Positions 86-50,222 are shown, numbered from the whole stretch's first letter. The stretch: 62,426 nt of DNA, filler included, from Sluysia triapertura (GCA_046118255.1; 5 parts of 5 records of this genome joined end to end with filler, not necessarily neighbours in it); one strand, 5' to 3'. Notes: generated by a model not told the origin, from the sequence alone. Program-made: numbers and translations.

Positions 86-345
86 ATTAGTGGTCATGGA
101 TCACAGTAATTTAAGAAATACATTGTATAAAATCTTTTAGAATGCATCATTGCTGCTGATATAACTTCTTGTCGAACACTAAGTCGTTCGTCAAATGTAA
201 AAACATCATCATTAAAAAGTATCAACTCTTGACTTTCATCTACATTATCTAATTTATCATTATCACTTTGACTATTTTTCAAAATATCATGTTTGTCTAA
301 TAACAATTCCAAATAATGAGAACTTGTCCAAAAATTATTAGTCAT
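82..345 (-). pseudogene. CCNC: Cyclin C N-terminal fragment (intronless, premature TGA, cut by hAT insertion)
   Basis: MTNNFWTSSHYLELLLDKHDI...LSVRQEVISAAMMHSKRFY...CDP*PLM resembles cyclin C MAGNFWQSSHYLQWILDKQDL...LKLRQQVIATATVYFKRFY...IDPVLM. Confidence 0.85.
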
Positions 346-933
346 TTTGAAATTTAAATTACAAAAATGTTATATCTTTTTATTTTTAGGCTACGAATTA
401 TTTTTAAGCGTGAACGTTATATTTTACTTCTGAATAATTATGTTTTAAACTCATGTAACAAAATGTTATGCCAAAAAATAAAATTTCTTTAATATCTCTT
501 ATTTTATTGCACACAAATTCTTGGCTACTTCACAAATTCACAATTGGACATACATTTATAATTTAAGTCTTAAGAGCAACAAAATGTACAGTAATAAGAC
601 TGATTTGGCGTGCAATCAAATAAAAATCAAAATTTAAATTGGTGCATTTAAAATTTTATTGAGCTTGTTATGGAAACGATATCTATTGGATGTTTAAAAT
701 TATGTGTGGCAAAAGGCACGCTACTAAAATGTATTAAATAATGACTATCAGCAATGACAATGGATGATGTGTACAAATTGAAACTATCATTACTGATAGT
801 GGCAGTTACTGCAAATAATATTATAAGTGTGTATTGCTAATGATTATATCGATACTAATGAAATGGTATACAAAAATATAAATGATAATAATAACAAAAT
901 TATGTAAAAACATACAATATTGAAATCAAAAAG

Positions 934-990
934 CATAAATCTTATACTTTGTTAGATACATGATCTTTCTTTTGTTTATCTTCTTTCTTA
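934..990. promoter_or_regulatory. Conserved upstream box of chimeric family (copy 1)
   Basis: CATAAA...TACATGATCTTTCT aligns by eye with 16885-16950 and with the reverse complement of 42945-43008. Confidence 0.6.
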
Positions 991-1445
991 AAATAATATT
1001 TATTTAATTATAATGTAAAAAGATATAATTGAAATTAATGTTTTTAAAGTTCCTAAAGAATGAATGTTGAAGGATTGTGAACCTAGGAAGTTTTAAATTA
1101 ATTTTCACGTTTTCAATGATAATTTAAGATGTAATTGTGGTTCTAATGTTATGGATAATGAATAAAATGTTTTAAATGAATTTTTAAATGTACATATATG
1201 TTTTTGAATATATGTGTAGTTTGGATATTGAAAGATTGTGAATTTAAATGTTTTAAAGTATGAAAAGGTTCTAATAGTGTGAGTAGGTAAAATATAAAAT
1301 GTTAATACATATGATATTGTGAATAAAAAATATAATTTTAACCTTAAGCTAAATGCTGTCCACCACCAACTGATTAATGATCTTTACTCATTGTATATCA
1401 AAATTAAAGTGAAGATTTGCTTTGTACAGTTACAAGACATAAGAC

Positions 1446-1510
1446 GTTTACTGTAACCGGACCCTGCTCAAAATATTTTTGCCGTAGGTTTAGATTTAAG
1501 AAAATCACAG
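1446..1510. repeat. Dispersed repeat; inverted copy at about 9158-9218
   Basis: GTTTACTGTAACCGGACCCTGCTCAAAATATTTT matches reverse complement GTTTAATGTAACCGGACCCTTCTAAAAAATATTTT. Confidence 0.65.
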
Positions 1511-1721
1511 CATTAGTATCAATAATAGTTTACACGTATAGTGATTGCCTATTTGTTATCATATAGTGTATAATGTATTTAATGGTATTCGTAAAAATAA
1601 GAAGTTGCTCTTATTTTTAAATAAGAATTTCACTTAGACAAATAATTAACTAACGATTTTAACGTGAAAACACGAATAAGAGTTTTTTATTTATAATGCT
1701 TAGTACTTTCTTAATAAAAAT

Positions 1722-1800
1722 ATGTATAATTTGTATAATAAATGTATAATGTATAATAAAATGTATAATAAAGAAATGTATAATCTTTAATTTGTATAAC
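1722..1800. repeat. Degenerate ATGTATAAT minisatellite
   Basis: About 7 imperfect TGTATAA(T) units. Confidence 0.7.
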
Positions 1801-4219: not shown

Positions 4220-5290
4220 TTCAGTTTGCGATCATCAAAAACCATATACTTCGCAGTATTTAGCGGATTCTATTCGGGAATCATCAGACTTTGATTGACG
4301 AACATCACTATCTTCTTCGTTGATCTCAACCATGTCTTTTATTTCTTACACTTGAATGATGCCACCTTGACAGGTTTTACTAGTGATCATGAGTTTATGA
4401 TTAATGGCATAAAGCCTTTTAAGATATAAGATTCCTTTAGCTAGTTCAACTTCATCTTGATGTAAATCCTGTAGCTTTTTAAAATCACACAAAATTTGAA
4501 TTGCGCTTGAAGTACAAGGTTCATGAGTATCATGATGAATGTCGCATCATTCACAAAATCAGTTACATCATTTCGCAGAGACAATTCAGTTTCATTAAGT
4601 AAATTAATTGCCGTTAAACTCTAAGAAATATTTTTAATAAATTATACGTTGGATTAACTAAAAGCTTTTTGAAATAGTGAGCGTTTTTTATGTGATATTC
4701 CAAGGTTTAGCTTCATTTAACTGAACACGTGGTGAAAATAGTCCTCTATATTTGAAAACTTCTGACAAGGCATAATGTGCATCTGTCTCGGTATCACTAC
4801 TTGTTTTTACTAGCAGCATCTACTGACAACTTAGATTCCATATACAAGTCGGTTAAAATTACATACTTAACTCGAACTGGTTTTGAAGATCACGAGCAAA
4901 ACATCGCTTAAGATAATCTACTGCTGCTTTACTGATACAATAGCTTAACATATTTTAAAAATACTTAGAACCAGCTGCACTAGAAACATTAACAATTGAT
5001 TCTTTGGACGTTAGCAAATAATTTACTAAGGCATTTGTAAGAAGTAATATTTAAGGAACATTAATATTCATTACATCATCATACTTTTTGCTTTAACATT
5101 TTCCAAACTTTTTTCAACATCATCGGATAATTTGATAATTATATGTTCATTTCTAAAACAAACTTCTGACTAAGATACTTCTTTTTTTCATTGCATTTTT
5201 CTAATATCTTTTATACTGTCTTCTGAACGACCTCTAATAAATAAGTGTACTCCAAGTTCGGCAAATAAATTCCACTACTAGCATCCGTTA
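4220..5290 (-). pseudogene. Decayed multi-exon gene with very short introns, possibly helical/TPR-like
   Basis: GT-AG mini-introns at about 4621-4647, 4823-4866 and 4932-4964 separate coding-like segments (KAAVDYLKRCFARDLQNQFE; TETDAHYALSEVFKY; LQDLHQDEVELAKGILYLKRLY) that contain stops and frameshifts. Confidence 0.45.
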
Positions 5291-9579: not shown

Positions 9580-10394
9580 TCAAATATATATAACCACATG
9601 TTCGTCACTTGGATACAATTTATACGCCGCACTACAGTCCTTTACCACACGTTTCAGAAAAACATAAATAACTTTACAAGATTTAAAACTTAACATGATT
9701 ACATTACTTAAGTTATAACTATCTTTTAAATTGAAATTAATATAAAAGCTTTTATAAAATTCAAATTTAAGTATTTGCATTAAACGAAAAATTTTACCAT
9801 ATAAAATAAAATAATGACAATCAAATATTAAATTTGTCAAAATAATAGTAATTAGTTTTATTGTAGATATATTATGGTTAAAGATAATGTTGCTAAACAA
9901 ATAACACATAACTAATGTAGGGTTAGTAATCATTTTTATTATCAACATTTCTTTAACTTCAAGGTTGCAGAAACATTTCAAATAATATTCCATATAATCA
10001 TAAATAGAATATCTAAAAGGATATTCTAATTGGTTACAAAACAAATATATAACTAATGTAGTGTTAGTGATCATCTTTGTTACCAACACTTTTTTAACTT
10101 CAAGCGATTTTAAATGATCAAATTCTGGTTCATGGTTGGTAAATGTATAATGTACCACAAATCTACTATGCGACGAACTACATTATGATTCCTTTTGAAC
10201 ACTACTATTCGACTACCTTTATCACCAGTAGCCACAAAACTTACGGATTCATCAAATTCAAGACAAAATATATCAGCATCATTAGCATCTTTTGTTGTGC
10301 TTTTCATTTGAGAAAAGTACCAATCCATATTTATTTTTAATTCTTCCTATGTAACATCATTTCCACAAGCTTCCATTTTAAACACGGTATCCAT
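9580..10394 (-). pseudogene. PPP2R2: Chimeric ORF: PP2A B55 (PPP2R2/twins) N-terminal fragment + 141-bp duplicated segment + unrelated tail
   Basis: DWYFSQMK...ADIFCLEFDESVSFVATGDKGSRIVVF, then after a frameshift YTFTNHEPEFDHLKSLEV, match B55 WCFSQVKG...ADIISTVEF...LATGDKGGRVVIF...STFQSHEPEFDYLKSLEI. There is an in-frame TAG after the ATG at 10394. Homology ends at KSLEV. Confidence 0.85.
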
Positions 10395-10539
10395 TTATAA
10401 AATTATCGAGTCACAACGTTAATGTTTTAAAAAAATTTAAATTTCTATTTTGTGACTTTTTAGGTGGTTGACTGTCTATTTATATGATACACACATGTTA
10501 TTAAGGCACTATGAATTTGATTGGCCATTGTGTGCTTAT

Positions 10540-10775
10540 TATAATTATTGTCATCATAATCGTCATTATTGTCATTATCATCGTAATCATTGTGATCATA
10601 TCGTCATCACTATTATTATAATCGTTATCATTATCATCATTACTACCATTATAATCATCATCACTATCACTATAATTACCATTATTTCTATCACGTTAAT
10701 CATCATCATTATCACTATAATTATCATCATTATTATCATTATTTCTATTACTACCAATTTTAATAGTAGTAGTAA
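10540..10775. repeat. Degenerate (ATC/ATT)n trinucleotide tract upstream of the B55 chimera
   Basis: Low-complexity tract; it produces the spurious poly-Ile ORF. Confidence 0.85.
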
Positions 10776-11299
10776 TTAGATTTAAATTTGGGATTAGAAT
10801 GCGGTTATTTATTATTTTTGTTATAACCAGACAATTCATTATTAAATGTATGGACTTAATTTCCATTCAGAATGAAAAGTACAAAAATAAAAGGTACAAT
10901 TAAACTAAAATTTATATACCTTGTCAAACTAAATATAATAGTTAAATTATTTTGTAACTTTTGATTTTAAAAAAAAGTATTATAAACTAATTGAGATAAA
11001 CGACTTTACAAAAGCCGCAAACCCTGTGAATATTCTCCTGCACTCAATCTCCTGCACTCAGTTACACAAATTAAATTCTTGGCAAAAATAAATGATTTAT
11101 GATGTATTATGAAATTGAAGTTTGAAACAAGTTTATTAAGTTTTTTTATTATAGAGTAACAAATTGTAAACTATGATATATTTTTATAGACCATGTTTTT
11201 TCATTGAAACCAATCGTTCTGACTTAATTTATAGTAATTATGTGAATGTGTTGAGTTTTTATTGTACTTTCAACTCGATCTATATTATATTTGAACTTC

Positions 11300-11683
11300 A
11301 GGCTCCCAAACATATTTTCCTATCCAAACCATCTTCAAGTTGAATAATATCACTACTTTCTTCACGTACAATTGAAGAAGTCAAACGAACTAAACATTTT
11401 ACTTCTAGATCACCAATTCTCTTAATAACTAAACATAATTCTTGTCCACCTATAGCCAATTCGATCGTTTCATTAGGCCGTTATTCTTTTAATTTTTCTG
11501 ACAATCTTTTAAAAAGTCCATTAACTAATTTCATTGTTGGCCATTTAGGACAAAGCAGTACTAATGCAACGGTTGTGTCTTGTTTGAGAAGTAAACCCTT
11601 TGCTAATGGATCAACTCGCATTGCACCGCACAAAGCCTTTTCTGTACTTTCTTTGCACTTGTAGCTATCATCAATAATCGATT
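11300..11683 (-). pseudogene. ZFR: ZFR/ILF3/STRBP-family DZF-domain fragment
   Basis: KALCGAMRVDPLAKGLLLKQDTTVALVLLC...LTSSIVREE...DGLDRKICLGA* resembles ZFR [30 protein letters not shown]...LTSPIIREE...DVLDRQKCLDA. It has an internal TAA and is missed by the ORF track. Confidence 0.8.
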
Positions 11684-13949
11684 CTAATTTGTGAAAAGGT
11701 AAATTTGAAAAAATGGGAGATACAAGAAAAAGGATAGTGCGTCATGGTGATGACAAAAATAGCAATGAACGCTGAGTTTAATGTTTTGGCTAAAAATGTT
11801 AATAAAAGGAATTTTACTAGGCATTTGTGATTTTGTAATGATTAGTGGTGTAATGTTGTGAATGATATGGACAAGATTTTTTGTGATGAGGTTTGTGTAC
11901 ATGATTTATGTGATATATAGGTAGGTGTGGGCTGGGCCACCACACACCAAATTTGCACTTATCCGATAAAACGAAGTTTAATTTAAAATATATAATTCAA
12001 TTTTTTTAGTATTTTGATAGAAATAAGTCTTACTTTTTCGATACTATATGATATCAGAATTTTTAATAGATGAATAAATTTCTGTAGTTAAAATTATTCA
12101 AATACGAATAAACATAATCAGTGATTTAAATCTCGACACTTCGGATCTTCAATAAATAATCACTTAGTACTCCGGTGTAATTCTTTGATTCAAGATTTAA
12201 TCCTCATAGTAGGATCCAACTATGAAATTTAATGAAATTTAACAAAATGGAATCGACTGCTTTACAATTTAATAATTTTCTTCTAATGAAATCCATCTTA
12301 TTTATACCAAATTTTCTTCTAATTATAGGACTTGTTCATTAATTTGCCAATAAATGTCTCGTTCAACAATAATAGTGTTTACTTTTCTTCCATAATATTC
12401 TATGCATTGCCTTATATTATTTTATATTATATTATTTTAAAATACTTATATTATTTTATAATAGTGATTCCTTGTTTATAGTGTTTCCATAATCAGTTTC
12501 TTATATTATTTGTTACTACAGTAACTTTCTCCATAATGATTCCATAGTAATATATTTTATTATAGCGTATTATTTTATGATGTTTCATTAATTTATTATA
12601 ATTGTTTTAATTATTTTGATTATTATTTAATTATTTAATTACTTGAATATTCATACTAAAAATGTAAAAAATTAAAAAAGGTTAAGTGTGTAAATATTTG
12701 AATGAGTTGAAATGAACTCTTAATCTCTGGTGATAGTTTCGTTAAAACTTATCTGTTCTAGAAAATAAAAATGTATCCTTTGAAGCTGTCAAAATTCGAA
12801 AGGCTAAATTGATATAGATACAAACTTTAGTAACACATCAATATTTTAATTTATCTGAAGGTATATATACTTTATGTATTGTGTTTATTCTTTCTAGCAG
12901 CGTGAATTCGAATACTCGTCCAGTTATTCGGGATAGAAGTGCTTATCTACTAAACTATTCTTTTAAATTTTATTTAGTTAAGCTCTTGTTTTATTCTGAA
13001 TATCTCTTAGTATGAATCAATAATATAGTTATCAACGATAAACGATATAATATTGTATCATAGTATCGATCAATAATATGGTTATTAACGATAAAATGTA
13101 AAAATTAACAATTATAATGTAGTTTCGTATTAGAAATTTCACCAATAAAACAGTAACACTATTGTTAATAATATTAATAATTACACTAATATTCCAAGAT
13201 TTAATATGTATTATCAAAATTTCATGTAATATTAGCTTTTTAGTTTGAATGTTATTTAATTTTGATTTGAGATTATTTTTGTTTAATCATAATTTAAAAT
13301 GATTTTACTCGTTTATAATGCTCTTAAATATTGATTACATATAATTTTTATTTATTCTATCTGAATGGCAATTTAAGTTAATTTTGATCGAGAATAATAT
13401 TAATTTTTAATTACATACTAGTTTTATTTAATCTCAATTTAGTATGCTTTTTTCTTATTTATCGTAATATTCTAAATCATGTTTTTAAGATAATTTTTGA
13501 TCGAGTTTTATGCTTTAAGTTTGATTACATATTGTGGTTATTAATTCTTATTTTATAATAATTTTATTAACTATAAATAGGTAGGTTTGATTTTTATAAA
13601 TTTTAATTTCATATTATCTTTATTGAATCTCATTTTAGAATGATTATTTATACAATTTCAATTTAAGATTGATTGTTATGTGTTACTAAATTTTGAATTC
13701 ATATTATATGTATGAATCTCATTTTAATTTAATATAAGAGCATTATGATTTTGATGATAATTAAATTAATGAAAATTTAAAATTAAATAATTTTAGATTT
13801 ATTAAAAATGAAGTGAAAATTTGATTGAAATGAATTCAAAAATGAAAATTTGAAAATAACTTAGCATTATTATTTATTTTATAAATTGGTCATAGTTAAA
13901 AATAGACATTCGTTTTACAAAATTACAAAAAAAACAATTAGCATTCATT

Positions 13950-15697: not shown

Positions 15698-16437
15698 TAA
15701 CTTTATTAGCTGATCGTAATATTCCGCTTAAGATAATAATATTGTCTTTTAGAATCATGTACAAAACACACTTTACTAGTCGGCTTATCCATTTCTACAT
15801 ATTTTCGTTTAACTCTATATACATCTTTAACAGGTTTATCTATTTCTAATTTTGTTCGTCTAACTTTATATACATCTTTGACAGGTTTGTCTATTTCTAA
15901 TTTGGCCCATTATACGCTGACTAAATGGAGATCGAACAGTATTGCCATGACAGTGCCTTTCAACTTCGTTCGAAGATCATCTATGATTAAATCACACAAT
16001 TTACTAGCGAGCATCGGTTGAAGAGTTACCAGATCCTCTTTTATCAAAATTAATGAACAGCTATCTGCTCTTATTAGTAGACTCACATTTTGAAGAATTT
16101 TAAAACCAAGTGTTGTGACTTTCAAATCATCACATAAATCTTTTAATAAATCGTGTATCATTTCATTTACGTTTAAATTATTTTTATATGCACCTCGACA
16201 TCTCTCAGTATGTTTTGTTGATGATGATTAATTAATTAGGTTCGGAGCATATGGTGACGAAATTGTAACGGAACCATCACCATTAGTTGAAATCACAGGT
16301 TTAAAGTTGACTGATGCGTTTGATACAAACTTAGATAGTAGTCTTTCGAAGCATAATTTACCGATAATACTAGTCGTAGAAACGTTAATATTTGAACTTC
16401 CACTCTGCTTAAGTTCTATACATAATGGTAATATCAT
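15698..16437 (-). pseudogene. Chimeric ORF: cGMP phosphodiesterase (PDE5/6/11-type) GAF-A fragment + 51-bp tandem repeat + family tail
   Basis: One reading frame with two in-frame TAA (16228, 15910). HDLLKDLCDDLKVTTLGFKILQNVSLLIRADSCSLIL...LASKLCD resembles GAF-A ELVKDIS..LDVTALCHKI...LISADRYSLFL...LISRLFD. It is followed by KLEIDKPVKDVY repeats and HDSKDNIIILSGILRS. Confidence 0.8.
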
Positions 16438-16590: not shown

Positions 16591-16749
16591 TCATCCAATC
16601 AGGCCTTTAAAAAAGATAGGTGAGTAAAATAGGTCCTGATTGGATGATGAACAATTCTGCTGCAAAAATAGTTACTACTGATGATTGGCCATCATCAGTG
16701 TTGACACATTAATGAGAATTGTGATACATTGTGTCAACACTGGTGATGG
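16591..16749. promoter_or_regulatory. Inverted CCAAT pair (CCAATCAG-N33-CTGATTGG) plus a second 20-bp inverted repeat
   Basis: TCATCCAATCAGG and CCTGATTGGATGA (16591-16647); CCATCATCAGTGTTGACACA and TGTGTCAACACTGGTGATGG (16689-16749, 19/20 match). Confidence 0.7.
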
Positions 16750-16884
16750 TAGCGACCAGATTTTGGCATTTATAAGTAATTAAGTAAAATAATTTAATTT
16801 GTACTTTATAAAATAATTTAATAATTGATAATAATAATAATAATAACAATATTGTTATTATTATTATTAAATAAAAGAAAATCG

Positions 16885-16950
16885 CATAAATGTCTTTTAA
16901 CTATATTTTACACGATCTTTTCTTTCTTCTATATCTTAATTCTAACATAT
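16885..16950. promoter_or_regulatory. Conserved upstream box of chimeric family (copy 2)
   Basis: CATAAATGTC...TTACACGATCTTT. Confidence 0.6.
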
Positions 16951-25874: not shown

Positions 25875-26410
25875 TACAGGGTGGCCCAAAAGTAGGTTTA
25901 TAGTTATCACGTAGACTATTCGTAGAAATTCGTTATATCTGTTAATGTAAACATAACCATAAAAAATTTAATCTCACACATGCTCAAAATATCCTCCCCT
26001 TCAACAAAGCAACATTCTTCAAATATCTCCAGGACACTCTGACACAAAGTGCGGCACAAATTCAGATTTTCATCAAGATAAATATAATCTTTTAAATCAT
26101 TTATTGTTTTGGGTTTTTTCTCATAACACCCCAAAAAAGGAATCTATAGGTATCAGGTCAGGTGAACATGGTGGCCATTCGAGGCTGACCATTCTTCCGA
26201 ACCAGAGATGCGGAAAAATTTGGTCAAGGTAGTCTCTTATGGTAGACGCATAATGTGATGGTGCTCCATCTTCCTGAAAGAAAAGTTCGTCAAAGTTAGG
26301 TTTAGTTTAGAGTTTTGGCACTATAACTTCACGAAGAATATCCAGGTAGTTCTCTCAATTTACAGTTCCATTAAAAAACGGGATTGATAATGCACTCAAA
26401 CCGAAATACC
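25875..26410 (-). mobile_element. Tc1/mariner relic (DD37D/DD41D-like), 3' part with TIR
   Basis: TA|CAGGGTGGCCCAAAAGT terminus; transposase FQEDGAPSHYASTIRDYLDQIFP, frameshifted WPPCSPDLIP, and KPKTINDLKD...LCRTLCQSV. Confidence 0.85.
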
Positions 26411-31901: not shown

Positions 31902-34569
31902 ACCCTTGTCCTAAAAAGAAAATGATTTATTTTAGTTAATTGCTAAAGAAATGACTTTAGTTTCACTGTTATTCACTGATGAACTAAAGCAGCTTCCCTA
32001 CAATTAAAAAGTTTGCTAAATTGATTTATCTTGACGCTTTCCTATTCTCGCTTCTACTCTGTTCTAATTGCAAAAATGTAACTGCTTATATAGCAGTTTT
32101 ATGACAATTAGTGAAATTAAAAATCAGAAATCGAACAAGACGGAAATTAAAGCTGTTGATTTTCTTTTAATCGGCAATAGGCCGACTAATTTCACCGAAT
32201 AAACGTCGACAGCAATTTCCATCTGTGTTCAACTTCATTATTATTCCAATTATCTAAGGATAATGGGATTTGTGGCAAACAATCCCCTTATCTTCTTAAT
32301 ATCAAATAATTAAAATTTAAAATCACTGTTACATTTCTTTTATAATAATAACGCAATTTGTCAACTTAATTTAAAGATAAAATTTATTAAATAATAAATC
32401 AATTTCTCACGGGAGTATTCTACATTGAACCGTACGTTATATGTCAAGTTCAATAACATATTAGAATTAGTATCTTTATAAGAATTAATTTGATATATAA
32501 TTTATTAATACTTAATATTTAACTTTAATTTTAAATTATAAAAATTAATTAAAATAACTAATTTTGACGTTATCAACCTTAATGTGCTTCACAACACTTC
32601 ATCATTAAAATACTAATAAAACTCAATATTATACACTAAATCCAATATCATTTTATCATGAGCAAACATTTTTATTGAATTCTCAAACAAATTTAATTAA
32701 ATTAATTAACAAATGTACTTTGATGTTTTAACAAAGAAACTCTGTAAGGGATTATTTCTTCGTATTTCTCATTGTTTTATCTTGATTTAAGTATTTTATA
32801 TACTTATCTTACCATTACAGTTTATCACAATACCTCATCTTAATTTTTTTAGTAATGTTTAACTTATTCTGTTATCTTTAGTCTTGGCCCTTACATCTCC
32901 CTTTATTTTTCACCAATTCCAACATTATGGTTCCACTTAAAGTATGAAGTTTATTTTTATTATTTAAAATACGCACCTCTAAGATTCTTAATTGTGATAT
33001 ATTATACTTAATAATTTAGTCTTTAGAGTTGAGATAAGCTTATAAGATCGGTTATTTAATTCTTTTACATATTGACCTAGCTATAAGTTAATGTTCTATA
33101 GACTTAGTCCTCTATAGTTGATCAATTGGTATTTATTGGAAATAAACTTGATTCATTTCTTTAAATATTATAACAATTAAATGATTTTATGATTCTTCTT
33201 CTATGCGTTACTTAGTGTCAGTTAAGTATTCAACAATCAAAAAACTAAAGTTTATTACATGACACAAAAGTTTATTGATTATATACCAAACCACAAAATC
33301 AACACCTTTAATAAAATTATGTAATTAATGTACGACAACATTAGCAATATGCAAAACCATAAGATCAAAACCTTTTAAAAAATTCCAATCGAATTACATA
33401 ATAAATATATAATAATATTTGTCACAGTAGATTTGATTCTAGTGCCTTCACTTTATTATTTTAAAAGATGAGTTTGGCACTGGTCTTAAGCCAACGTAAA
33501 TTCAAATAACTTTAAAGTAAGATTTTATGCCTTACGTAAGTAAGGAATACTTAACACTAATGAACTTAAGAATGTTATTAAAGCGTATATGAATTTCTCA
33601 ATGATTCACGGAATAATCGAGATTTTATGTATTAATCGCACATAAATCCAACGTAAAAAAAACTGCGAACTTAATCTGTCAAATGTCGATGCCACTTATA
33701 AAATATTTGAAGAACGTGATCATGTATACGCGAAGATCCTACGCAAAAGTAGCGAAACAGATATGCCGAATGTATGTGCCGCGGAAAAAATAGCGATGCT
33801 AATAAACTTTTTCTATTGGATTATTGTTGTGATGTATGTAAAAATGTTTTAATTTATATTTTCTTTTAGATTAGTAGAACCATTATCATTATTTAATATT
33901 TATTTTAAAATCATAAATATTTACAATTATGTTATAAAATTTTTTGTAATTAAAAATGTATAATTATGTTACTCGCGTAACAATTTGATAAAAATAAGGT
34001 CCACTTTCGCAATTTAAACAGAAAAAAGATACGTTTATTAAAGATTTACATAATTTTAATAATTCTAAACAATTATTAAACAATTAAAACTGAAGCAGTC
34101 ATATAGTCCAAGCTAATTATATTAATTATTCTAAAGTTACAAAATTAAAGCTGTCACTAGAGTATGAAAAGAGATTATGCTATACAGGATATACTTAGCA
34201 TTATATTCGCGATATAAATTGGTGCCAGATAAACCTCCGTGATGCTGAAGATCCAGATCTTGGTCTGACAAATTCAACGAATGAAAGGTGCATTGATTTT
34301 TCTTTTGTTCAATTCGACTTTCTTGTTTTGAGTCCATATAAATCCTTAATGTCTTATTCGTCTTATTTGGTAGTTCATCCTATTAACGTACACGATAAAT
34401 TTCTCGGTTTTAGTATTAAAGCTCATAAATTAATAAATTCAACAATTTTAAATTTTATAAAATGGTCTTTGTTATAAATGTTCTAGAATGTTCTGCGTAA
34501 AATCACATAACAATACAATAAATATAAATAGTTATAAAGTACCTTAATAATAACATTAATTTATTCAAA

Positions 34570-38699: not shown

Positions 38700-38706
38700 T
38701 ATACCA

Positions 38707-38776
38707 TAAGCGCTTTTGAGTACTTTCGCGGTAGATATGAGCGCCATATAAATTAATATATTATTATTATTATTAT
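38707..38776 (+). mobile_element. 3' tail of L2-type LINE (or partner SINE) ending in (ATT)n
   Basis: TAAGCGCTTTTGAGTACTTTCGCGGTAGATATGAGCGCCATATAAAT is nearly identical to the reverse complement of 50391-50437. Confidence 0.75.
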
Positions 38777-41486
38777 CAAATTATTTGATACTTTAATTGA
38801 CTAATTCCTTTATTCGTTGTTTTAAATTTTCTACTGCTTTACAAAATAAATTAATTTTGAACTTGTAAAATTTTTTATGGAATTTCTTGTTGCTTTGCTA
38901 AACATACTTGATTTACAATCTCTATATTTTTTAAAAATACGTTTGATTAAAATTTACCTCGTTTCTATTTTTACTGCGCCTAATTTCATATACATTTGTA
39001 GAAAATGCCAAGGTACAACATAATTTTATTTATATTCGAGAGTTTTTTGGTATTTTGGTAGACAATTAAATTCATTTAACTTATGACGCAATAAAATGAA
39101 ATTATCAAATCAAAATTTAATTGATTACCTAATTTAATAATGACAGTATTAGTATTTAGTAAATTTAAAAATAAATTATTTAATTTATCTATATTGCACA
39201 TCCATTCGAAGCCAATGTGTGGTAATGGTTAACAATGTAATATTAACAACTTTCGCACAATGTTTGTCGTCAAAGGTTATTCCACCTCTTACACAAGTTT
39301 AATAAGAAACTAAACACATCGGAATCAGTTAAATCCAGTATAATAATCTTTGGATTTAATTCTGACTTTATTTATGGAAGTGTTTTTAGCCAAGAAATGT
39401 CTAATTTTAAGCACGCCATTGCATAGTTCTTGCTATATTATATTATTAATTCTTGTTATATTATAAGCCGTGTTATAATTGCAATTATTTCTACCAATAT
39501 TCTATTTTGGCGTTAATACTTTAATATATTCTAGTGCACAGGATATCCATAGCTATGTGATATGGAAAATACCGTTGGATTTATCAACACTATTGGAATA
39601 TACATCATTATGATAATCTAGTCAAATTTAGGTAAAGTACTTGGTAAAAGTTTTTAAGAATCGATAAATTTAACAGCGAAATTTTGAAGTTTAATATTAT
39701 ACGAAAAGAGTTCCTGGAAGTTCCAAACAAATGTATAAATGCGGAAATTTGGTTTACAAATGTAATATAAAACAACCATAATAACAAATTATATGATCAA
39801 GCAACAATATGAAATAATAAGGCCAAATTTGAAGTGGACATTGTAACAAATACTAAAATACCAAAACAAAATAATATTACTATAATTAAAGCAGAACAAC
39901 ACAAGTAAAGAATAAATAAATAAATGTCATAATGCAAAACAAAAAATACTATATAACAATGCAAGTTGAAATTCAATTTGTTAATTGAAAGTATACTTTG
40001 CGAAGTGCAATCGAAGAAGATATATTAATTTGACATAAACTAAACATATCTGTTATATTTAGTTTATTTAATTAGTTATATTTAATATATTTAGTTTAGA
40101 ATCCTTTCAAGTCTGTATATATTGTTAAAGTACAAATAAACGAATAAAATAATAACAATTATTATTATGTTATACTATATAGCATTACATTATATTAAAT
40201 TAAATATAGGTTGATTCCTTATAAAACATTTATAATTTTGTTAATAGAACTTAATTTTAGTAAATGTTTATTACGACAATTCTCCACGTAAAAAGCAATA
40301 AATATTGCGTTTTAGCCCAAAAAATTTAAAGTTGAAGAAACAGAAACTTCAACTGATAAACTAATCTTGCAATTATCAATTAACACTAGTAAAAGTTCAA
40401 TATTCGTAACCACTAAAAGAATTTTGAACTGTTATTAATAAAAAACAATATTAAATAATGAACTAATTTTAATATAATGTTAATAAACAAAGGGTGTCGC
40501 AACCAAAGAAATACAAATTAAGTTTCCGATAAAAATGAAAAGAAGATTCTCCGAAATTATTTAATCATACAAATTAGAAGGAAGATAAATAACAACAACA
40601 AAATAGTAGTGAGTCTTCCCAAAAAAGGTTAATTTAATTTTAGTAATAAAATGATTAAAATAACAAAAATGAAGATTTTAATTAATTAATTAAATTTCAG
40701 ACTTAATTTTTAGGTTTTATTAAGGTATTTAAAATTGTTGGATTCTTTATGAGTTACTCATGTTTTCTAGATGTTTTCACTTTCACCAATATGATTCTGT
40801 TTTCTACACCATTATGTTAATTATTATTAATTATTAAATTTGTTTTTATTATTAAATTTATCTTTAATGTAAGTAACAATAATTTAACTTCTCAAATATT
40901 TTGAAAATTTCAAATACTTTATAAGGTTACTTGAAGGTCTCAAATGCTTATCAATGTTTCAGACATTCTTAAAGGTTGATGAAGTCCTAAATAGTCTCAA
41001 AGTTCTCAAGTTCAATGGTACTTTAACCGGTATCAAGCTTCATCAAGGGTATCAACATCTTATAAAGATTTTGGGAACTTCAAGGTATTCTTCAATTCTC
41101 AAAATGGTCATAGATGTTTTCATGTTCGTCAATCACACTCCAATTATATTTCATTATGCTTTATCATTTTTATTAATTATTTCTACATCTTTCAATTCCA
41201 CATCTTTATTCATCTCCCATTTGGCTGCTGGGCAATCCAAATGTATCTCATTCTCGAGGAAAAGGTCTGACATCATACATCCTAATTAATAAAAAATAAA
41301 ATGACCACTACACGATAAAAATTCAGATACCATCAATCCAAGAACTTACTGTTACATGCAGAAATTGAAATGAATAATAAATCAACAATCAAGTTTAGCT
41401 CGTCCTCCCAAAAGATATTCTAACACGCCTTTCCTTAAAGAATTACTTTGGTTATTGATAAAATCATTGATTCCAAAATTATAACT

Positions 41487-41580
41487 TTAGACTTCAAAAA
41501 ATGAACTGACCGGTAATCCAACCCGGAACCTCTCGCTTCACAGCTGTAGTTCGATGCTCTGACCACTGAGCTATCAAACA
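41487..41580 (-). mobile_element. tRNA-derived SINE / tRNA pseudogene (copy 1)
   Basis: A box TAGCTCAGTGGTCAGAGC, degenerate B box GGTTGGATTACC, and a non-tRNA tail (TGAAGTCTAA) shared with 46734-46818. Confidence 0.75.
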
Positions 41581-41944
41581 ATTTTAGATTATTATAGTCA
41601 ATTATACTATCATTATTCTAAATGGAACTTTAGGCCTTTAACACAACATAATAATCATTTATAGAACTTATATTATGTCTCTTGGAGATAAACAAAAATT
41701 TGGAAACAAAAATGAATGCCAGAAAAACAAGAATTTGAACAAAATTAGCTGCGTGACAGGTTATGTACCGTTTGTTTCAAAAAACATATAAATTACGGAA
41801 ATATTATATATTTAAGAAAAAGGCAATGCTTTTTCTGAATCAGAAATATTATACTGAATGATTTATTTTAAGTACTGATTTTCTATTAAGTATTATAGGT
41901 CGGTTTTTAATTGTTCCAATTATTATTGTTACTACTTTGACATT

Positions 41945-42345
41945 TATTTCTCTGAATATCTTTCCTTAGATTTATCCATGTGTACTTTACTTGTATCATC
42001 ATCATCATCATTTTTGAGTATAGTTGCAAGACATTGCCCTTTGCTTCGATTAGCATCCTTTCAGTATATCTACTAAAGAGACTTTTTTAAGATATGTTTT
42101 TGTTTTCAATTTGTCTTCATTTGAACTAGTACATTTCTAGCTAGCGCTGCTGATTCTGCTTCTTTACTGGCTAGCAATCGATCGTCTTGTTTCATTTGGT
42201 AAGGATAATTATCCTTATGAGATACATAAATTGAATAAATTACAGTTCCATTTCCACCTTTTTTTTCATGCACCTGTGGGTGTATCTAAATCCACATTTA
42301 TTGTTTTCACTAATGTTTCCATTATAACAAACTTCTACCTGTGAG
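41945..42345 (-). pseudogene. Decayed coding-like fragment, unidentified
   Basis: METLVKTINVDLDTPTGA*...NYPYQMKQDDRLLASKEAESAALARNVLVQMK; GC is above background and several stops are present. Confidence 0.35.
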
Positions 42346-42944
42346 GTAACTGGTACTTGGTGTAGTGGTCAACCCCATAAGTTAAGATTGAAAATAACCT
42401 CATTAAAATAATTTCAATCACAATCATACTCTGTAACTATAATCACCACACAATTCACCACATAAAACAACAATACACAATCATAACACTTTACTAACTT
42501 ACATTCACCAACGAAATAATCTCTATCTCAAACATTCACAACTCAATAAACCACTACTTTCACTCCAAATAATTCATAACATCCATTCATCAAACACTTC
42601 ATCAAACAAGTCAGAACCATAACACAAATTTCACAAATCACAAATACAATAACATTCAAATGTTCTTATTAACTATTTCAGAAACAAAGATCATCTCACC
42701 TAAAACAATAATCAACAATAACATTCCAAATCCACTTCACATAACCATACCCATCATCTGCAATCATTTTAATAACATCATAATATATACAAATTGTTCC
42801 GCAATTAACAATTAGAGTCAAAATAACCTCAATTTCCTTCTTAACAGCATTTTAATCTTTATACACTTCCAAAACAAAAGTCAGATAACTTCAAAGACTT
42901 TGTTATCTAACCGTGAAGTTGATATTCCTTAGTTTTCACTCCAT

Positions 42945-43008
42945 ATATGTAAGAAAAACAAGACATATCAGAAAGATCGTGTAATTAATAGAATTGAAGA
43001 TCTTTATG
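42945..43008. promoter_or_regulatory. Conserved upstream box of chimeric family (copy 3)
   Basis: Reverse complement CATAAAGATCTT...TTACACGATCTTTCT. Confidence 0.6.
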
Positions 43009-43148
43009 TATTACATTTCACTTAATAACAATAATAACAACAATAATTCATCACTTCTGGTACTGTTGTTGTTATTATTGCTATTTTAATTGTTATTATT
43101 ATTCTAATTATTACAAATTCTATATTATTATATACCTTAATCTTACCA

Positions 43149-43149
<1 letters not shown>

Positions 43150-43206
<57 letters not shown>
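43150..43206. repeat. (ATT)n microsatellite within a degenerate trinucleotide tract (43020-43250)
   Basis: Perfect run flanked by imperfect triplets. Confidence 0.95.
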
Positions 43207-43208
<2 letters not shown>

Positions 43209-43317
43209 TTAGCATTACTATTATTATTACATCATATTAATAATTATTCATCAAACAAATTAAATTCTTATTACATAATCTAAACAAAGCACCACAACAC
43301 AAGTGTGATTTACATCA

Positions 43318-43367
43318 CCCAATCAGATAATCTCTGCATCGTCACGGCAATAACGAATCTGATTGGG
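43318..43367. promoter_or_regulatory. Inverted CCAAT pair (CCAATCAG-N32-CTGATTGG)
   Basis: CCCAATCAGA...TCTGATTGGG about 300 nt upstream of the ATG at 43661. Confidence 0.7.
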
Positions 43368-43660
43368 CAGAGAGAATTCATTACAACTAATGACACATTT
43401 CTTTGTATTCGAATACAATTACTCAGACAATAATTATTCATAAAAATAGTATCAAGAAAATGAACACACAAAACAGACTAGAATAATCAGCAGCCAATTA
43501 ATTGCACACAATTCGTAATAAATCAATTCAGCCATTGTTAAAAAGTACACTATTAATCACTCAATTTTAAAAATCAAATTCTTATTCAGCCATAATTATT
43601 TTTAAAAACAGACAGGTGATAAAAATTAGACAGACATAGATTAAAAAAGACAATTAAAAA

Positions 43661-45280
43661 ATGAATTCAGAACATAGAAAAGACTTCCTATTATCGTGTT
43701 ATCAAGACATTACTAAAAGCTTGAACAATGTTTACGAAGACAAGTTGTCTATACGTAAAAAAGAGATAACTTCCATGTCTTCACCAAATTTATTTACAGA
43801 ATTTTATTCTCAATTGGCACAAATTAAAGTTTATCATAAACGTAATCCCGATGGAAATAAATCATTATCGTTATTAGAGTCATTGTCATTATTAGAATAC
43901 GATAATTTTAATAATATACGCGAAAACGTTGAAGGAGCTGGTGCACTAGTTTTTGAGTCTACTGATGAAGAGAATCATATTCGATTTTTAGATTTACGCG
44001 AATTTAATCAACTAAGTGTTGATCGGAAAGTATCACACTTTGACTGTGTTATGTACTTGCTTAAACTTAATAAGCTCTATGAGATTCCTAAAGACAAGAA
44101 GAATGTTTTACGCTATTATTATTTATTAAAGTTGACAGAACATCCAGATGATTGTATTGCTCGTTCTAAACATACGATAAAATTAGTAAATGCCGATTAT
44201 GTTATTAGTGAAGAATTAGATGATGCTGCCGATGATGTTGTTAGTGGAGAATTAGATGATGCTGCCGATGATATTATTAGTGAAGAATTAGATGATGCTG
44301 CCGATGACGTCGTTAGTGAAGAATTAGATGATACTGCCGATGATGTTGTTAGTGAAGAATTAGACGATGTTACCGATGATGCTGTTAAAGAAGAATTGGA
44401 TTCATACCAATCACCAAGTGTTTACCGAATCTTAGATAAAGTCGCTGATGATGTTCCCGATGATGTTGTCAAAGATAACCATGATGCATTAGACCAGTTG
44501 CTACTCTACATCCTTTCAAGCAGAAACAAATGTACTCGGACAGTATTTCTCATGTCTGCCTCCAATTCGATAAAGATACAGCGTAACGATATGTTTAACA
44601 TTTTTAAATACAACACGTCTGGAGACTTTGAAGGTAATAAATTAATGCTGAATTTTAACTTATATTTTGTTCACAATTATAATTTTTATATTAATTATTG
44701 TAGAATCTGCAATTCATCATGTAACGAAGATGGACCCATAAACGAAGAAACACTGTATATCATCAAATCATTAACTGTGTGTATAAACTTAAATAAAATT
44801 AAAATTTTAATAAATTCTTTTGTTAACAGTCTTAGATTTAATTTTAGTTATAATATGACAAATTACGACAAATTCAATAACAAAGAAAAGTGCAATTATA
44901 TTAAACCCAGTTATATCACAACCGGGATAGACTATAAAATAAACAATGATCAAACTCGTAAAGGTGTTAACTCATATAAAAAGGAAAATTCTTATAAGAT
45001 CACTCTAGAGGTTAAACATAGCTTTAATATAGGAAGTCTTGAATATGATATTTGCAAAGTTGTAGTAAATTGTACACAACACAAGACATATCTTAAATAC
45101 GATGACATAGTTATTTCAGATAATCTTACGTGCCGCAAGGTTACAAATAGCTTAATTCTATTACAATCAAAGATTAAAATACCCAAATCATTTAACTTTA
45201 ATCATATTAATTTACAACCATGTACTCACAAGCCCTCCATAATTTGGTTAATTAACATTAAATTAATCGAACATTTCTAA
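43661..45280 (+). CDS. SF3A3: Intact chimeric protein (539 aa): SF3A3/Prp9 fragment + acidic 12-aa repeats + lineage-specific tail
   Basis: MNSEHR...YEDKLSIRKKEITSMSSPNLFTEFYSQLAQIKVYHKRNP...TDEENHIRFLDL...LYEIPKDKKN resembles SF3A3 INSDHR...YDDKDGLRKEELNAISGPNEFAEFYNRLKQIKEFHRKHP...TDEEGYGRYLDL...LFDIPKERKN. Homology covers only about the first 175 aa, so this is a derived copy rather than the ortholog. Confidence 0.85.
   Translation: MNSEHRKDFLLSCYQDITKSLNNVYEDKLSIRKKEITSMSSPNLFTEFYSQLAQIKVYHKRNPDGNKSLSLLESLSLLEYDNFNNIRENVEGAGALVFESTDEENHIRFLDLREFNQLSVDRKVSHFDCVMYLLKLNKLYEIPKDKKNVLRYYYLLKLTEHPDDCIARSKHTIKLVNADYVISEELDDAADDVVSGELDDAADDIISEELDDAADDVVSEELDDTADDVVSEELDDVTDDAVKEELDSYQSPSVYRILDKVADDVPDDVVKDNHDALDQLLLYILSSRNKCTRTVFLMSASNSIKIQRNDMFNIFKYNTSGDFEGNKLMLNFNLYFVHNYNFYINYCRICNSSCNEDGPINEETLYIIKSLTVCINLNKIKILINSFVNSLRFNFSYNMTNYDKFNNKEKCNYIKPSYITTGIDYKINNDQTRKGVNSYKKENSYKITLEVKHSFNIGSLEYDICKVVVNCTQHKTYLKYDDIVISDNLTCRKVTNSLILLQSKIKIPKSFNFNHINLQPCTHKPSIIWLINIKLIEHF
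44192..44407 (+). repeat. 36-bp coding tandem repeat x6 (ADDVVSEELDDA)
   Basis: GCCGATGATGTTGTTAGTGAAGAATTAGATGATGCT units. Confidence 0.95.
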
Positions 45281-46138
45281 AAACATTTTTAAATTAAATG
45301 TCGTTTCTTTCAATAAATTATATAGAATTTACCTTGTACCTTTTTCATCTTATTGATTGTATTAATAAACTTTCTTTACTGTTAAAAGAACATATCCATT
45401 TGAGTGTAGAAAGAAATTGTGAATGTAAATAAAAAATCAAAAACTCGTTGACAGTTTCATTTCTTACATCAGAGATGAGAAAATCTCTGATTTCCAAATA
45501 TAATCAATAAAGAAAAATTAAAAGTAGTAAAAATGTAAAAAATCAAAGTAGTTTTATAATTTTATCGAACTAGTTGAAATATTATAAAACAAACTACAGA
45601 TAAGTTATCATTACATTTACAATAATTCGTTACTTAACTTATGCAGATAAGTCACGAAATTGAATAATTTACATATGTATATCCTATTTTTTAACCATAA
45701 TAATTTTGGGTTATTATTATGGTGACGAGGAACGCAAGAGCATAACTCATAGTATAAAAATAAAATAAGGAATTAAGATGAAACAATAGGATGAATTGCG
45801 ATAACAAAATATTTAAATCAAAATAAAAGAATGAAAGATACGAAGAAAGAACCATTTATAATATTAAAGTACGTTTGTTAATTAATTTAAGCAAAAATTA
45901 ATTTGCTTAATTTGATAATTTAGTGAAAAATGTTTGCTCAATGCTAAATTTAATTAGTAACGTAAAATTCAGTTTAAGTATAATTATGATACCCATAATG
46001 TATACTCATTTAATATAATTAATTATATTCATGAGGATATCAACTTTAATATGTTATTGTAATCGACGTGCGACAAACGGTTGACGCATAAAAGATTTCT
46101 ATAGAAAATAAATTTGGTATTTGATTAGTTTTATGTAG

Positions 46139-46216
<78 letters not shown>
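46139..46216. repeat. (ATT)n microsatellite
   Basis: Perfect trinucleotide run. Confidence 0.95.
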
Positions 46217-46733
46217 GTGTTGTTGCTATATCGTATTATATTATTTTATATTAAATTATATATTGTTTTGTATTGCATTATATTATATTACTTACTGCAT
46301 GATCGATTTTTATGAAAATTGCGAACGAAAACTAATACATTATGGCAAATTTCAACTATATTGTTTAATATTTTTTTGAATTCGATTAATCACAGAATTC
46401 ACTTGTTATATTTTTAGGATTCTTTAAACTTCTATATTCTTATTTCAATTGTTTGGACATCAATTTGTTTATCCAATTTAATTTCTGTATTTAGATCTAT
46501 GAGTTAAATTTATTAGAGCATTATCTACATTAATACTTTCACTCGTTTCGTTATTCCATTTGTTTATAAAATTAAAAACAATTTTTGCTGTTTCACATTT
46601 AAAAAATTGACGTTTGACTTTATCTTAGTTTGGCCATCTTAGGCTAGTCGACTAAATAACGTTTTGTTGGGGTAAAAAGGTCTAAAGTGCCATTTGGTAA
46701 AATTGACTATAATACAATAAAAGTGTTAGACGA

Positions 46734-46818
46734 GGGTGATAGCTCATTGATAGAGCATCGAACTGCGCAATGAGAGTTTCGGATTCGATCCCCGGTCAGT
46801 CCATTTTATGAAGTCTAA
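46734..46818 (+). mobile_element. tRNA-derived SINE / tRNA pseudogene (copy 2)
   Basis: GGGTGATAGCTCATTGATAGAGCATCGAACTGC...GGATTCGATCCCCGGTCAGTCCA plus the shared tail; acceptor stem pairs poorly. Confidence 0.75.
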
Positions 46819-48478
46819 CAGCTTCATATGCACTGATTATTATTCTACTATGTGGTGGTTCAACTCAATTGTTTGAAATATTGTTTCACATAAATAATTA
46901 ACGACCACACCTAAGTCACTTAATATATTTAATATCAATATTTACAAGCTCTAAAATTATTTTAAAAATGAAATTTCTATAACGCAACTGCAAATTCTCT
47001 TAATTTTCTACCACTCCTTTTGTCACACTTACGTGTTCCCAACCTTCTCTCTTTTTGCTTTTCTAACTTATTTCTTTTACAGTCCCCTTACATGATCACA
47101 AGTTGTTCCATATCTTACACATAATTCTACATCTCTCTACACTAAACACGATTTCACGAATACTTTCCCTACGGATAATGATAATCCGTAGATTATTCAA
47201 ATAAAAAACGTGTATCAATCATTCAAGATCTCAATCACAGATTTTTGAGTAAAATTTTGAGTAAATTTTATTAATTTTAATTGTAAATTATTTTATAAAT
47301 TGTAAATTTTGGTATTAAATATTCCTTTATATTATTATTGCCTTATATTAAGTTTGCTTCTTGTTAATACACTTAATAAACTACGATGCCTATTTAGTGT
47401 AACTAAAATTCCAAGATAATATTTTGATTTTAAATTTAATTTTTGAGAAATATAAGTATTATATAAGTGTAAGTGTAAGTGTACACTTAAAAGATTTTAA
47501 AAGATTTAGTTATAATACATAATACATAAATAGTTATTTGCAAAAAAATTTTTATTTTTTATTTAACCATCATCTTTCTTAGTTTATACCTTATCATCAA
47601 ATAACTTCGCTTTTCAACCTCAAATAATTTTACCTGCTTTAAAAATTGAAACTAATTCAAATAGACTGATTATAAGTGAATAAATTTGTTGCATTTTCAA
47701 TAATAGTTTTGTACATTTTGACTTTGAATTACATTAATATTCCAATTTAATATTACAACTTCAAAAAATTAAATTAAGTTTGATCGTTATCTTTATTAAG
47801 ATTTGTTAATTTTTAAACAATTTCATTTACAATTTCTCAATTAGCATCACCCATTATATAATAAATTATGTAATCAATTTAAGATTAGTTTCATTTTTTG
47901 GATTATTTAAACAAAGTAAAAAAACTTTTCAAAAAATATATTTAACAAAACATTTAAAATATGCTTTTTTTACCTTTATTTTTAAAATTTTGCATTTTGA
48001 TCATCAGGACATATATCTTCGTGATAATATGAACAATTTCAATTGTATTTTATTTTTCTTTTACAATCCATTGATTTGGACATCTTATCATTTATTTAAA
48101 TTCAATTAATGGTTACGCATTGATTTGTGTTTATCTTTTAATAAGTGTATTTGACATTTTGATTCAATCATAAAATTAAAAAATTTAGGTTTAAATAAGC
48201 TCAATCACTAATATGAATAATAATATTTATGTGACTGTTAAATTTAACAATAAACAGTGAAATGTAGAATTATAATACATATTTCATATTTTAAGCACCG
48301 TCAAACAAAGTCACGTAAAACTTGCGAAATATGTATAATTAACTTGACTGTCACGGAATTGTATAAATTGACTTGAATATTTTTGAAAAAATGAAATAGA
48401 TTTAATATATTTACTACTTAATTTTCATTTGGTACTAAATATATTAACAAAGAATTGGCATGTAGAATACATTGAATT

Positions 48479-49859
48479 TCAATCAGATATACAATATCCA
48501 AAAATTTTTATCAGTGTTATGGGGTTGAGGTTAATGTTTATTTGTTGTGTGTGCATCACCAAGTTTATTTCGACAGGTGAACGTTTCATAATTTTGGGTA
48601 TATTAATAAGTCTGCCTACGCCGAGTATACTTTTAATGTTGATCGCGGTTGTCAGTTTGTAACTTAATGAGTTGATTCTACCTTTCTTGTTATATGTTTT
48701 GACTACGGCTTTGCTCATGTAAGTATTATGAATGATTTTGTCAAACCTTCGGCAATAGTTTGCTCTGGTAGACGTTTCCCTTACTTTAACATTATCGACT
48801 GTTGATTCATTAATTAGATTAATTTGTGAAGGTGAATTATTACAAACGAATGAATGTGGCGAAACATATATTAATCCTTTACATCTTAATAGAGAACAAA
48901 TTCTGTTTCTAAAATCATAAACGTTTACTGATTCCTTACATTTTGTAAAAAAAAGAATTCGAATTTCAAAATTGTGAACATTTATTAATTCTTTACATAT
49001 TAAAAAAAAACTATTTGTACTTTCGAAATTATGAACATTCATTGATGCTGTACATTTTATTAGGAAGCGAAAGCTAATTTTAAAGTTCCACTTCCGCTGA
49101 TTTTCGGTCTCCTTGAATCCCAGTTGACAGATTGGTGTTGATCTAAGATATAAATAGTAAAATATAATATGATCATCGTATATATTTATATAATCAAGGA
49201 TAAAATGATTACTTATTGCTAATTGGAATGCTTCGTCATATTTAGAGCTGGACTCGTGGTGGAAGATAGAATTGATTGCATCTCCGTGAAACAGCTTGGG
49301 CGGAACTTGAAATACTAAAATGAGTTCGTCGCCGTGCATCATCTTCGAACGAATCTCGGATGCTAAATCAAATTGTACATCGTTCGCTTGAGCAAAAACA
49401 TGACTGTACGCGTCGTACGCTAAATTGATTGGGTCGTCATGTATTGACTTGATTGGATCGTATTTAAATCGCTCATACTTTACATCATATTTACCGGCTT
49501 GAACAAAAACATGACCGTACGCGTCGTACGCTAAATTGATTGCCTCATCATGCATTAACTTGATTGAATCGTATTTAAATCGCTCATACTTTACATCATA
49601 TTTACCGGCTTGAACAAAAACATGACCGTACGCGTCGTACGCTANNNNNNNNNNNNNNNNNNNNNNNNNNNNNNNNNNNNNNNNNNNNNNNNNNNNNNNN
49701 NNNNNNNNNNNNNNNNNNNNNNNNNNNNNNNNNNNNNNNNNNNNAATTGATTGCCTCATCATGCATTAACTTGATTGTTTTCTTGGTTTCGCAATAGATG
49801 CTATTATTTATCTTTATTTTCCTTATCTGATTTTTTAGTTTGCTGTTCTTGATTGCCAA
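48479..49859 (-). CDS. Repeat-containing protein of the chimeric family, no recognisable captured domain
   Basis: Long open frame across the assembly gap, with 37-aa repeats, 19-aa NVHNFE repeats and a C-terminal region resembling the tail of the SF3A3 chimera. Start uncertain. Confidence 0.65.
49390..49776 (-). repeat. 111-bp coding tandem repeat (at least 3 copies, collapsed at 100-N gap 49645-49744)
   Basis: GTACGCGTCGTACGCTA recurs at 49406, 49517 and 49628. Confidence 0.95.
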
Positions 49860-49972
49860 ATTTCTTATTTTTAATCGTATAATGCTGAATTATTGAAAAA
49901 ACCGAATGATGATTGTCAAATTTCTTATTTTTAATCGTATAATGCCGAATTATTGAAAAACCGAGTGATGGT
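49852..49972. repeat. About 60-bp tandem duplication
   Basis: CAAATTTCTTATTTTTAATCGTATAATGCYGAATTATTGAAAAA occurs twice. Confidence 0.9.
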
Positions 49973-50174
49973 TGAATTGTTTTTTATTGTTTTACGAAAT
50001 GTCTGAAAATTCGTTCTTGAAACGCCTGCAACAATTATTTGTATTTTCTTTTTGTGTCTGCCAAAATAATTATTAATTTTTTAAAACAAAATGGCCGTCT
50101 AAATTTTATTTTTTGCTTGTCTACTTACTAATCTGTCTGATTAGTTAATTTGTGTTAGTTTGATTTTAGCACAA

Positions 50175-50222
50175 CCAATCAGCTTAGTTATCATTAAAAC
50201 GGCTAGTATTGATTCTGATTGG
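50175..50222. promoter_or_regulatory. Inverted CCAAT pair (CCAATCAG-N32-CTGATTGG)
   Basis: CCAATCAG at 50175-50182 and CTGATTGG at 50215-50222, upstream of the minus-strand ORF. Confidence 0.7.

Follow-up and report, generated by a model that had tools for sequence, protein, structure and literature searches.

A shared promoter-like upstream module and multicopy chimeric reading frames in Sluysia triapertura

Gene capture by mobile DNA is familiar from plants, bats and flies. We asked whether it can account for five loci of Sluysia triapertura (GCA_046118255.1) that lie in a stretch of 62,426 nucleotides, filler included (hereafter referred to as the window), consisting of five short contigs with N spacers between them, from an AT-rich animal genome (about 25% GC). 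The loci are referred to here as cyclin C, PP2A B55, PDE, SF3A3 and ORF5, the last being an open reading frame with no named cargo. The original prediction for this DNA had described an ordered layout common to all five (a strand-biased arm, a box, a trinucleotide tract, an inverted CCAAT pair, and then a frame made of a captured host-gene fragment, a tandem repeat and a related tail).

Motif searches, with 100 dinucleotide shuffles for comparison, identified two motifs that recur upstream of the frames; the motifs were picked post hoc and the P values are therefore flattering. The predicted CATAAA...TACAYGATCTTT box was borne out at three loci, where it can be read on the other strand as AAAGATCRTGTA followed 15–25 nt on by TTTATG (968, minus strand; 16920, minus strand; 42972, plus strand). 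This combination was found in none of the 100 shuffles, and the box alone averaged 0.03 occurrences. It has the form AAAGATCATGTA ... TTTATG at the cyclin C locus (934–968, minus strand) and AAAGATCGTGTA ... TTTATG at the SF3A3 locus (42972–43008, plus strand); at the PDE locus, the trinucleotide tract and box together occupy 16808–16920 (minus strand). Likewise, the inverted CCAATCAG pair proved complete at three loci, as predicted, and was absent from all 100 shuffles: PDE (16595–16643; fold z −5.3), SF3A3 (43319–43367, 294 nt upstream of the ATG; fold z −3.4) and ORF5 (50175–50222, with the contig end 3 nt beyond; fold z −1.3). The PDE locus has a small second CCAATCA hairpin at about 16677–16699. 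Paired CCAAT boxes are presumably an NF-Y-type promoter motif. Trinucleotide tracts, predicted at four loci, were found at PDE, SF3A3 ((TTA)n, 43072–43229, Tandem Repeats Finder) and B55 (degenerate, 10538–10742), the cyclin C locus having no clear tract.

The loci are connected in pairs. In alignments of the box region (500 shuffles), the PDE–SF3A3 score was reached by no shuffle and the cyclin C–SF3A3 score by five, with the cyclin C–PDE pair unsupported (124 of 500). In alignments of the proximal region (200 shuffles), B55–PDE was reached by no shuffle and SF3A3–ORF5 by one, and the remaining eight of the ten pairs were non-significant. The B55 sequence aligning to the PDE locus is a module remnant (10395–10560, minus strand) with a single CCAATCA at 10524. 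These pairwise links make the five loci a chain of old relatives; between cargo classes, conservation is limited to short motifs. Both box and CCAAT pair were absent upstream of all five ordinary host-gene frames examined. Host genes in the window encode a formin, a leucine-rich-repeat protein, a protocadherin and a UFM1 ligase, the last in pieces, as expected of an intron-bearing gene, and transposon debris is present too; matches to the protocadherin did not exceed 31% identity among the best 120 of 494. The upstream module common to the loci is real, and this part of the predicted layout (box, tract and CCAAT pair) is supported. The box pattern was also sought in metagenomes, where it occurred at at least 119 loci; none of the matches listed was followed by a tract or a CCAAT pair, and these occurrences were put down to chance.

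The frames behind the module differ in integrity. The SF3A3 locus has an intact, multicopy chimeric frame of 539 codons (43661–45280, plus strand), consisting of SF3A3 residues 37–200 (43661–44167, E = 2e-20), six 36-bp repeats (44191–44401) and a tail; its start Met replaces an internal Ile of the human protein. ORF5 (48479–49889, minus strand; codon 49859 is TTG), also multicopy, comprises 111-bp repeats that are only TPR-like, 57-bp repeats (48863–49059) and a tail. An assembly gap of 100 N (49645–49744) interrupts its 111-bp array; as the letters on either side are adjacent within the repeat unit, the gap probably stands for an integral number of units. A full HMMER search with ORF5 gave five matches, three to generic TPR proteins and two to seemingly spurious repeat proteins. 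The SF3A3 frame, taken whole or as residues 1–178 (shorter proteins), had no homologue at E 0.001 in a word-based search weak enough to miss SF3A3 itself, and in ESM Atlas neither the start of ORF5 nor the tail of the SF3A3 frame scored 0.8 or more.

The other three loci are not intact fusions. The cyclin C fragment (97–345, minus strand; E = 2.4e-14) covers residues 1–83 from the native Met, uninterrupted by an intron, and then stops; the locus has no tandem repeat, and the contig ends 96 nt past the stop codon. The B55 fragment (10087–10394, minus strand) covers residues 10–59 and 66–95 in two frames (E = 2e-6 and 6e-5) and is broken by a stop at codon 16 and a frameshift; the second B55 piece belongs to a 200-codon open frame (9583–10182, minus strand) continuing through a 141-bp repeat into a tail without a detected homologue. 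At the PDE locus (15835–16437, minus strand), an unrelated 69-codon leader is followed by a stop and a PDE5-like GAF-A fragment (15835–16158; a weak match, E = 0.007) with a second stop, the two stops being at codons 70 and 176. The captured fragments of conserved regulators predicted for all five loci were thus recognised for cyclin C, B55, SF3A3 and, weakly, the PDE GAF domain, but not for ORF5, and the predicted in-frame exchange of N-terminal cargo applies to two loci at most, SF3A3 and probably ORF5. An additional cargo, missing from the original prediction, lies inside the B55 module between arm and tract: a DZF-domain fragment of the ILF3/ZFR/STRBP type (11295–11672, minus strand; Pfam DZF_N, E = 1.1e-9; ILF3, E = 2.5e-10), with one internal stop and no intron in the aligned stretch. 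The continuity of the captured fragments with respect to PDB chains, over 83–169 residues, suggests an origin from mRNA.

Copy number was assessed from the depth of assembled contigs of run X1 at 80% likeness over 38700–50225, against six unique pieces with an exact match (depth 10–19, median 15). The SF3A3 frame reached 63–253 times unique depth, the SF3A3 box/CCAAT region 32–47 times, and ORF5 with its 5' region 58–92 times, whereas the SF3A3 arm reached 7,000–23,000 times; depth was down to seven times in the bin directly past the SF3A3 stop. According to this profile, promoter and frame have been multiplied together, their common part ends near the stop codon, and the arm is part of a far more abundant repeat. 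The high copy number originally predicted was therefore supported, by raised depth, at both loci measured. Four of the seven runs listed were compared with this stretch; the three besides X1, X2–X4, displayed the X1 pattern at several hundred times lower depth, exact matches included, a signal that is probably carry-over rather than independent support.

The differences between copies (the best 40 of 764 rows by the tool's support ranking) included 21 inside the SF3A3 and ORF5 frames, of which 11 were synonymous and 10 residue-changing, with no stop. The number of synonymous differences expected was 4.1–5.6 over four null models (P = 0.0008–0.011; P of about 0.008 at 5.4–5.6 expected), and the excess corresponds to a ratio of non-synonymous to synonymous change (dN/dS) of about 0.2–0.3. 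In one relative's contig, 49 nt were replaced by 13, a net in-frame change of 36 nt, and the repeat units contained no stop versus 3.1 expected (P = 0.05). The comparison of copies thus gives modest evidence for constraint on the protein, with the repeats and tails showing frame-keeping only, and some of the chimeric frames are likely to be kept by selection while the rest decay. The dominant-negative, decoy-like and small-RNA roles put forward in the original prediction are speculative.

The periods of all six repeats within the frames are multiples of three (18, 36, 51, 57, 111 and 141), a property partly inherent in choosing open frames. In each of the four cases the repeats mark the cargo's 3' junction, and those of PDE and B55 duplicate the last codons of the cargo, as slippage would produce. 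Of the locus-specific tandem repeats predicted, those of 36, 51 (15785–15903, minus strand, overlapping the end of the GAF match) and 111 bp were recovered by Tandem Repeats Finder, but the 141-bp repeat (start 10104) has two copies only, similar over about their first 78 nt. The tails remain open for 172–249 codons where shuffles give 16–21 stops, and show no codon-position GC bias, whereas real host genes do. They have no relatives in Pfam, HMMER or ESM Atlas searches and no CCCH finger in common. Pairs of tails gave z values of 0.1–1.5 versus shuffles, equalled or beaten by control proteins, tail-to-tail blastp returned nothing, and the scores of 3' DNA pairs were reached by 10–18 of 100 shuffles (the cyclin C and PDE loci, whose contigs end before a tail, lie outside this comparison). 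The related tail, or common C-terminal scaffold, of the original prediction is accordingly unsupported; the chassis is the shared 5' module rather than a protein scaffold. Elsewhere in the window, a 129-codon frame (54710–55096, plus strand) with no module upstream contains what looks like a degraded CCCH finger (Pfam zf-CCCH_UNK, with E = 0.029 short of the cut-off).

How could such loci have arisen? We consider it somewhat better than an even bet that all five are copies of a promoter-bearing mobile repeat with a single end, which acquired pieces derived from mRNA and was subsequently multiplied at the DNA level. The paired CCAAT boxes would serve as an NF-Y-type promoter 130–400 nt before the start codon. 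The fragments would have arrived as cDNA, since they are intron-free and the neighbouring host genes are intron-bearing. Plain retroposition drops the promoter, yet here the promoter is multicopy, so copying of the unit would have gone through DNA or through a transcript begun upstream. DNA-level copying, most likely by a rolling-circle (Helitron/Helentron-type) partner, is suggested by the multiplication of the promoter region with the frame and by the lack of a matching far end. Slippage where the cargo ends, at its 3' junction, may have enlarged the tandem repeats, and each locus may have gained its own tail when reading continued into unrelated DNA. Rolling-circle elements would best accommodate a one-ended unit whose far end varies and which combines several captures with a microsatellite; one module contains two unrelated cargoes, B55 and DZF, and two cargoes in one element have been reported for Helitrons (PMC6431247).

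Several observations weigh against a mobile unit of this kind. The window yielded neither a terminus nor a target-site duplication nor an empty site for the units, and no Rep/helicase, transposase or gag-pol remnant was detected beside the units in the Pfam-scanned frames, which cover part of the 62-kb window; a Rep/helicase partner may lie elsewhere. Depth was obtained for two of the five loci, SF3A3 and ORF5, in a single run, and summed contig depth does not equal copy number and indicates orders of magnitude only. The 21 differences form a small sample, with two in one codon, and the comparison of repeat units was neutral (18.5 of 70 synonymous versus 16.0 expected, P = 0.23). Intron loss was judged indirectly, from continuity with PDB chains. 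In addition, a broken short-chain dehydrogenase (SDR) fragment with stops (4880–5113, minus strand; Pfam adh_short, E = 3e-11) has no box or CCAAT pair upstream, indicating a high pseudogene background.

The arms add to these difficulties. Those of three of the four loci are G-poor (skew 0.50–0.81), as the original prediction of a strand-biased arm would have it, and all three start with TTGGTG..GTGG: cyclin C (965–1369, minus strand, motif at 1369; skew 0.50), B55 (11700–11950, minus strand, motif at 11950, without a full box; skew 0.66) and SF3A3 (42357–42930, plus strand; skew 0.81), the last being part of a very abundant repeat, with a depth of 109,000–346,000 versus 10–19. The motif has four occurrences versus a shuffle mean of 0.06, three of which mark the outer boundary of an arm. 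The PDE arm departs from the prediction, with a skew of 0.09, and the arms are not mutually alignable: none of six pairs was significant versus shuffles and, with tighter limits, the best pair among 15 (B55–SF3A3) was reached by 3 of 100 shuffles. The arm, about 100 times commoner than the module, may be a separate repeat. We also considered the arm as a decayed reverse transcriptase or as a zinc-finger array on the other strand, and rejected both for want of Pfam support. Two further G-poor stretches (46850–47260 and 55950–56450; skew about 0.5) have no box or cargo behind them and do not align significantly to the arms.

The lack of alignment between arms and between tails, together with the non-significant proximal pairs and a genome rich in repeats and broken fragments, would suit another explanation, in which independent processed pseudogenes came to lie by abundant old repeats and the layout is coincidence plus pattern-picking. 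We regard this as very unlikely: all three boxes are on the same strand as the cargo to which they point, all three CCAAT pairs lie about 160–410 nt from a long frame, module and frame are multicopy together, and synonymous differences are in excess. A host multigene family is also unlikely, albeit to a lesser degree. A paired-CCAAT promoter would then have been duplicated in tandem or segmentally, with retrocopies inserted behind it in the manner of jingwei and without any mobile element. Such a family would be compatible with the synonymous excess, with a promoter-like module of which only short motifs are conserved across cargo classes, and with the failure to find ends or a mobilising enzyme, but a common ancestral gene should have left a shared tail, and none exists; moreover, depth is near unique right past the stop codon and the units are scattered among unrelated host genes and repeats. 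A bolder version of the mobile-repeat reading seems doubtful to us: a standing gene factory, in which one portable paired-CCAAT promoter is loaded repeatedly with mRNA fragments of conserved regulators and the chimeras are amplified to tens or hundreds, many being kept translatable. Each of its proteins would join an interaction domain of host origin to a junction repeat and a de novo tail.

Among known systems, the Helitrons of vespertilionid bats (HelibatN211/N424 and N102) amplify promoter-plus-retrogene chimeras and, as summarised in PMC4224331, share with the mobile repeat proposed here the union of a captured promoter with intron-free gene pieces in a multicopy unit, captures made one after another and a majority of broken copies, with a few in bats having dN/dS below 0.5. 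The Sluysia loci have one Helitron-type trait, in that host-gene fragments are carried and multiplied (raised depth at both loci measured). They differ in that no Helitron termini were found for the cassette, no autonomous partner was detected in the Pfam-scanned frames, one promoter module is reused before many cargoes, and the frames continue into repeats and a long tail without a detected homologue. DINE-1/HINE elements, non-autonomous partners of Helentrons, are described as combining a very abundant non-coding repeat, a microsatellite and a palindrome (PMC4067079), which the present loci may resemble, but the palindrome in our case is the CCAAT pair inside the unit, before the coding frame, rather than a terminal stem-loop. 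Nor were subterminal inverted repeats found: of the 885 inverted pairs in 38700–50225, the longest 25 include none that bracket the SF3A3 or ORF5 unit, and a separate comparison of the SF3A3 flanks gave none either, although old short copies could escape this search.

The units might instead be inner parts of non-autonomous long terminal repeat (LTR) retrotransposons, with mRNA captured by template switching and the arm as a G-poor leader. LTR-mediated retrocopies, according to the account in PMC5131818, yield intronless sense cargo, multi-gene mosaics and in-frame products, some of them constrained, which matches the intron-free sense cargo, the two cargoes in one unit and the in-frame products observed here, and gypsy-type RNase H remnants are present in the window. 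Nevertheless, we think this origin quite unlikely: no flanking LTR-element segments were found (SF3A3 locus only), no direct repeat of more than 17 nt connects 41.7–43.0 kb and 45.2–46.7 kb, microsatellite aside, the minus-strand read-through of 40.5–43.0 kb contains no retroelement domain, and an LTR element does not require a second, internal promoter immediately in front of the ATG. Pack-TIRs, including Drosophila Ssk-FB4, provide an animal precedent for a multicopy chimeric protein family made from captured host sequence (PMC8277862). They differ from the present case in copy number, which here, to judge from depth, would run to tens or hundreds instead of a handful, and in their ends: no terminal inverted repeats or target-site duplications were found, no such repeats enclose the SF3A3 or ORF5 cargo, and the sole inverted pair on the first contig (1452 and 9210) is outside the cyclin C and B55 cassettes. 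The cassette cannot be assigned to any of these classes (Helitron/Helentron, LTR retrocopy, Pack-TIR), as the terminal features looked for were not found. The claim that it belongs to no described family holds insofar as no title or abstract start describing the cassette was found in a full-text literature search, from whose coverage most subscription journals are missing; its likeness to gene-capturing elements is closer than had been assumed, the bat Helitrons having the same layout at least as summarised in PMC4224331.

The inverted pair at 1452 and 9210 (TGTAACCGGACCC..., 35 nt, 88% alike) is located between the cyclin C and B55 cassettes, its two members pointing towards each other over 7.76 kb. 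Its flanks, TTAC and TTAA, agree in three of the four letters of a possible target duplication, the SDR fragment lies inside it, and it is a candidate Pack-TIR of its own; these ends were not accepted as LTRs, there being no primer-binding or polypurine signal next to them. The transposon debris of the window includes a decayed gypsy-type RNase H region (24397–25085, plus strand; Pfam, E = 2e-12) and a weak DDE transposase fragment (26124–26306, minus strand; E = 0.008). Two copies of a very abundant repeat (46697–46820, plus strand, and 41487–41607, minus strand; depth up to 334,000 in X1) have tRNA-like A and B boxes by eye and are probably a short interspersed nuclear element (SINE), called by neither ARAGORN nor Rfam; ARAGORN made no call at all, and Rfam gave no match at E 0.5. 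More non-coding repeats of very high depth in run X1 lie at 40625–41009, 41808–41872 and 45800–45950, and 45806–45948 is similar to 32652–32797. An 81-nt repeat, 91% alike in its two copies (38707–38785 and 50357–50437), is found next to a (TAA)n tract at two contig starts.

In animals, to our knowledge, most captures have only a few copies, and the promoter was captured separately each time. Here, one promoter module stands before many unrelated cargoes, and two chimeric frames, with synonymous differences in excess, seem to exist in tens to hundreds of copies. Should the pattern extend across the genome, Sluysia triapertura would offer a large natural series on how often captured fragments and once non-coding tails turn into functional proteins, and an unrecognised mobilising partner might come to light.

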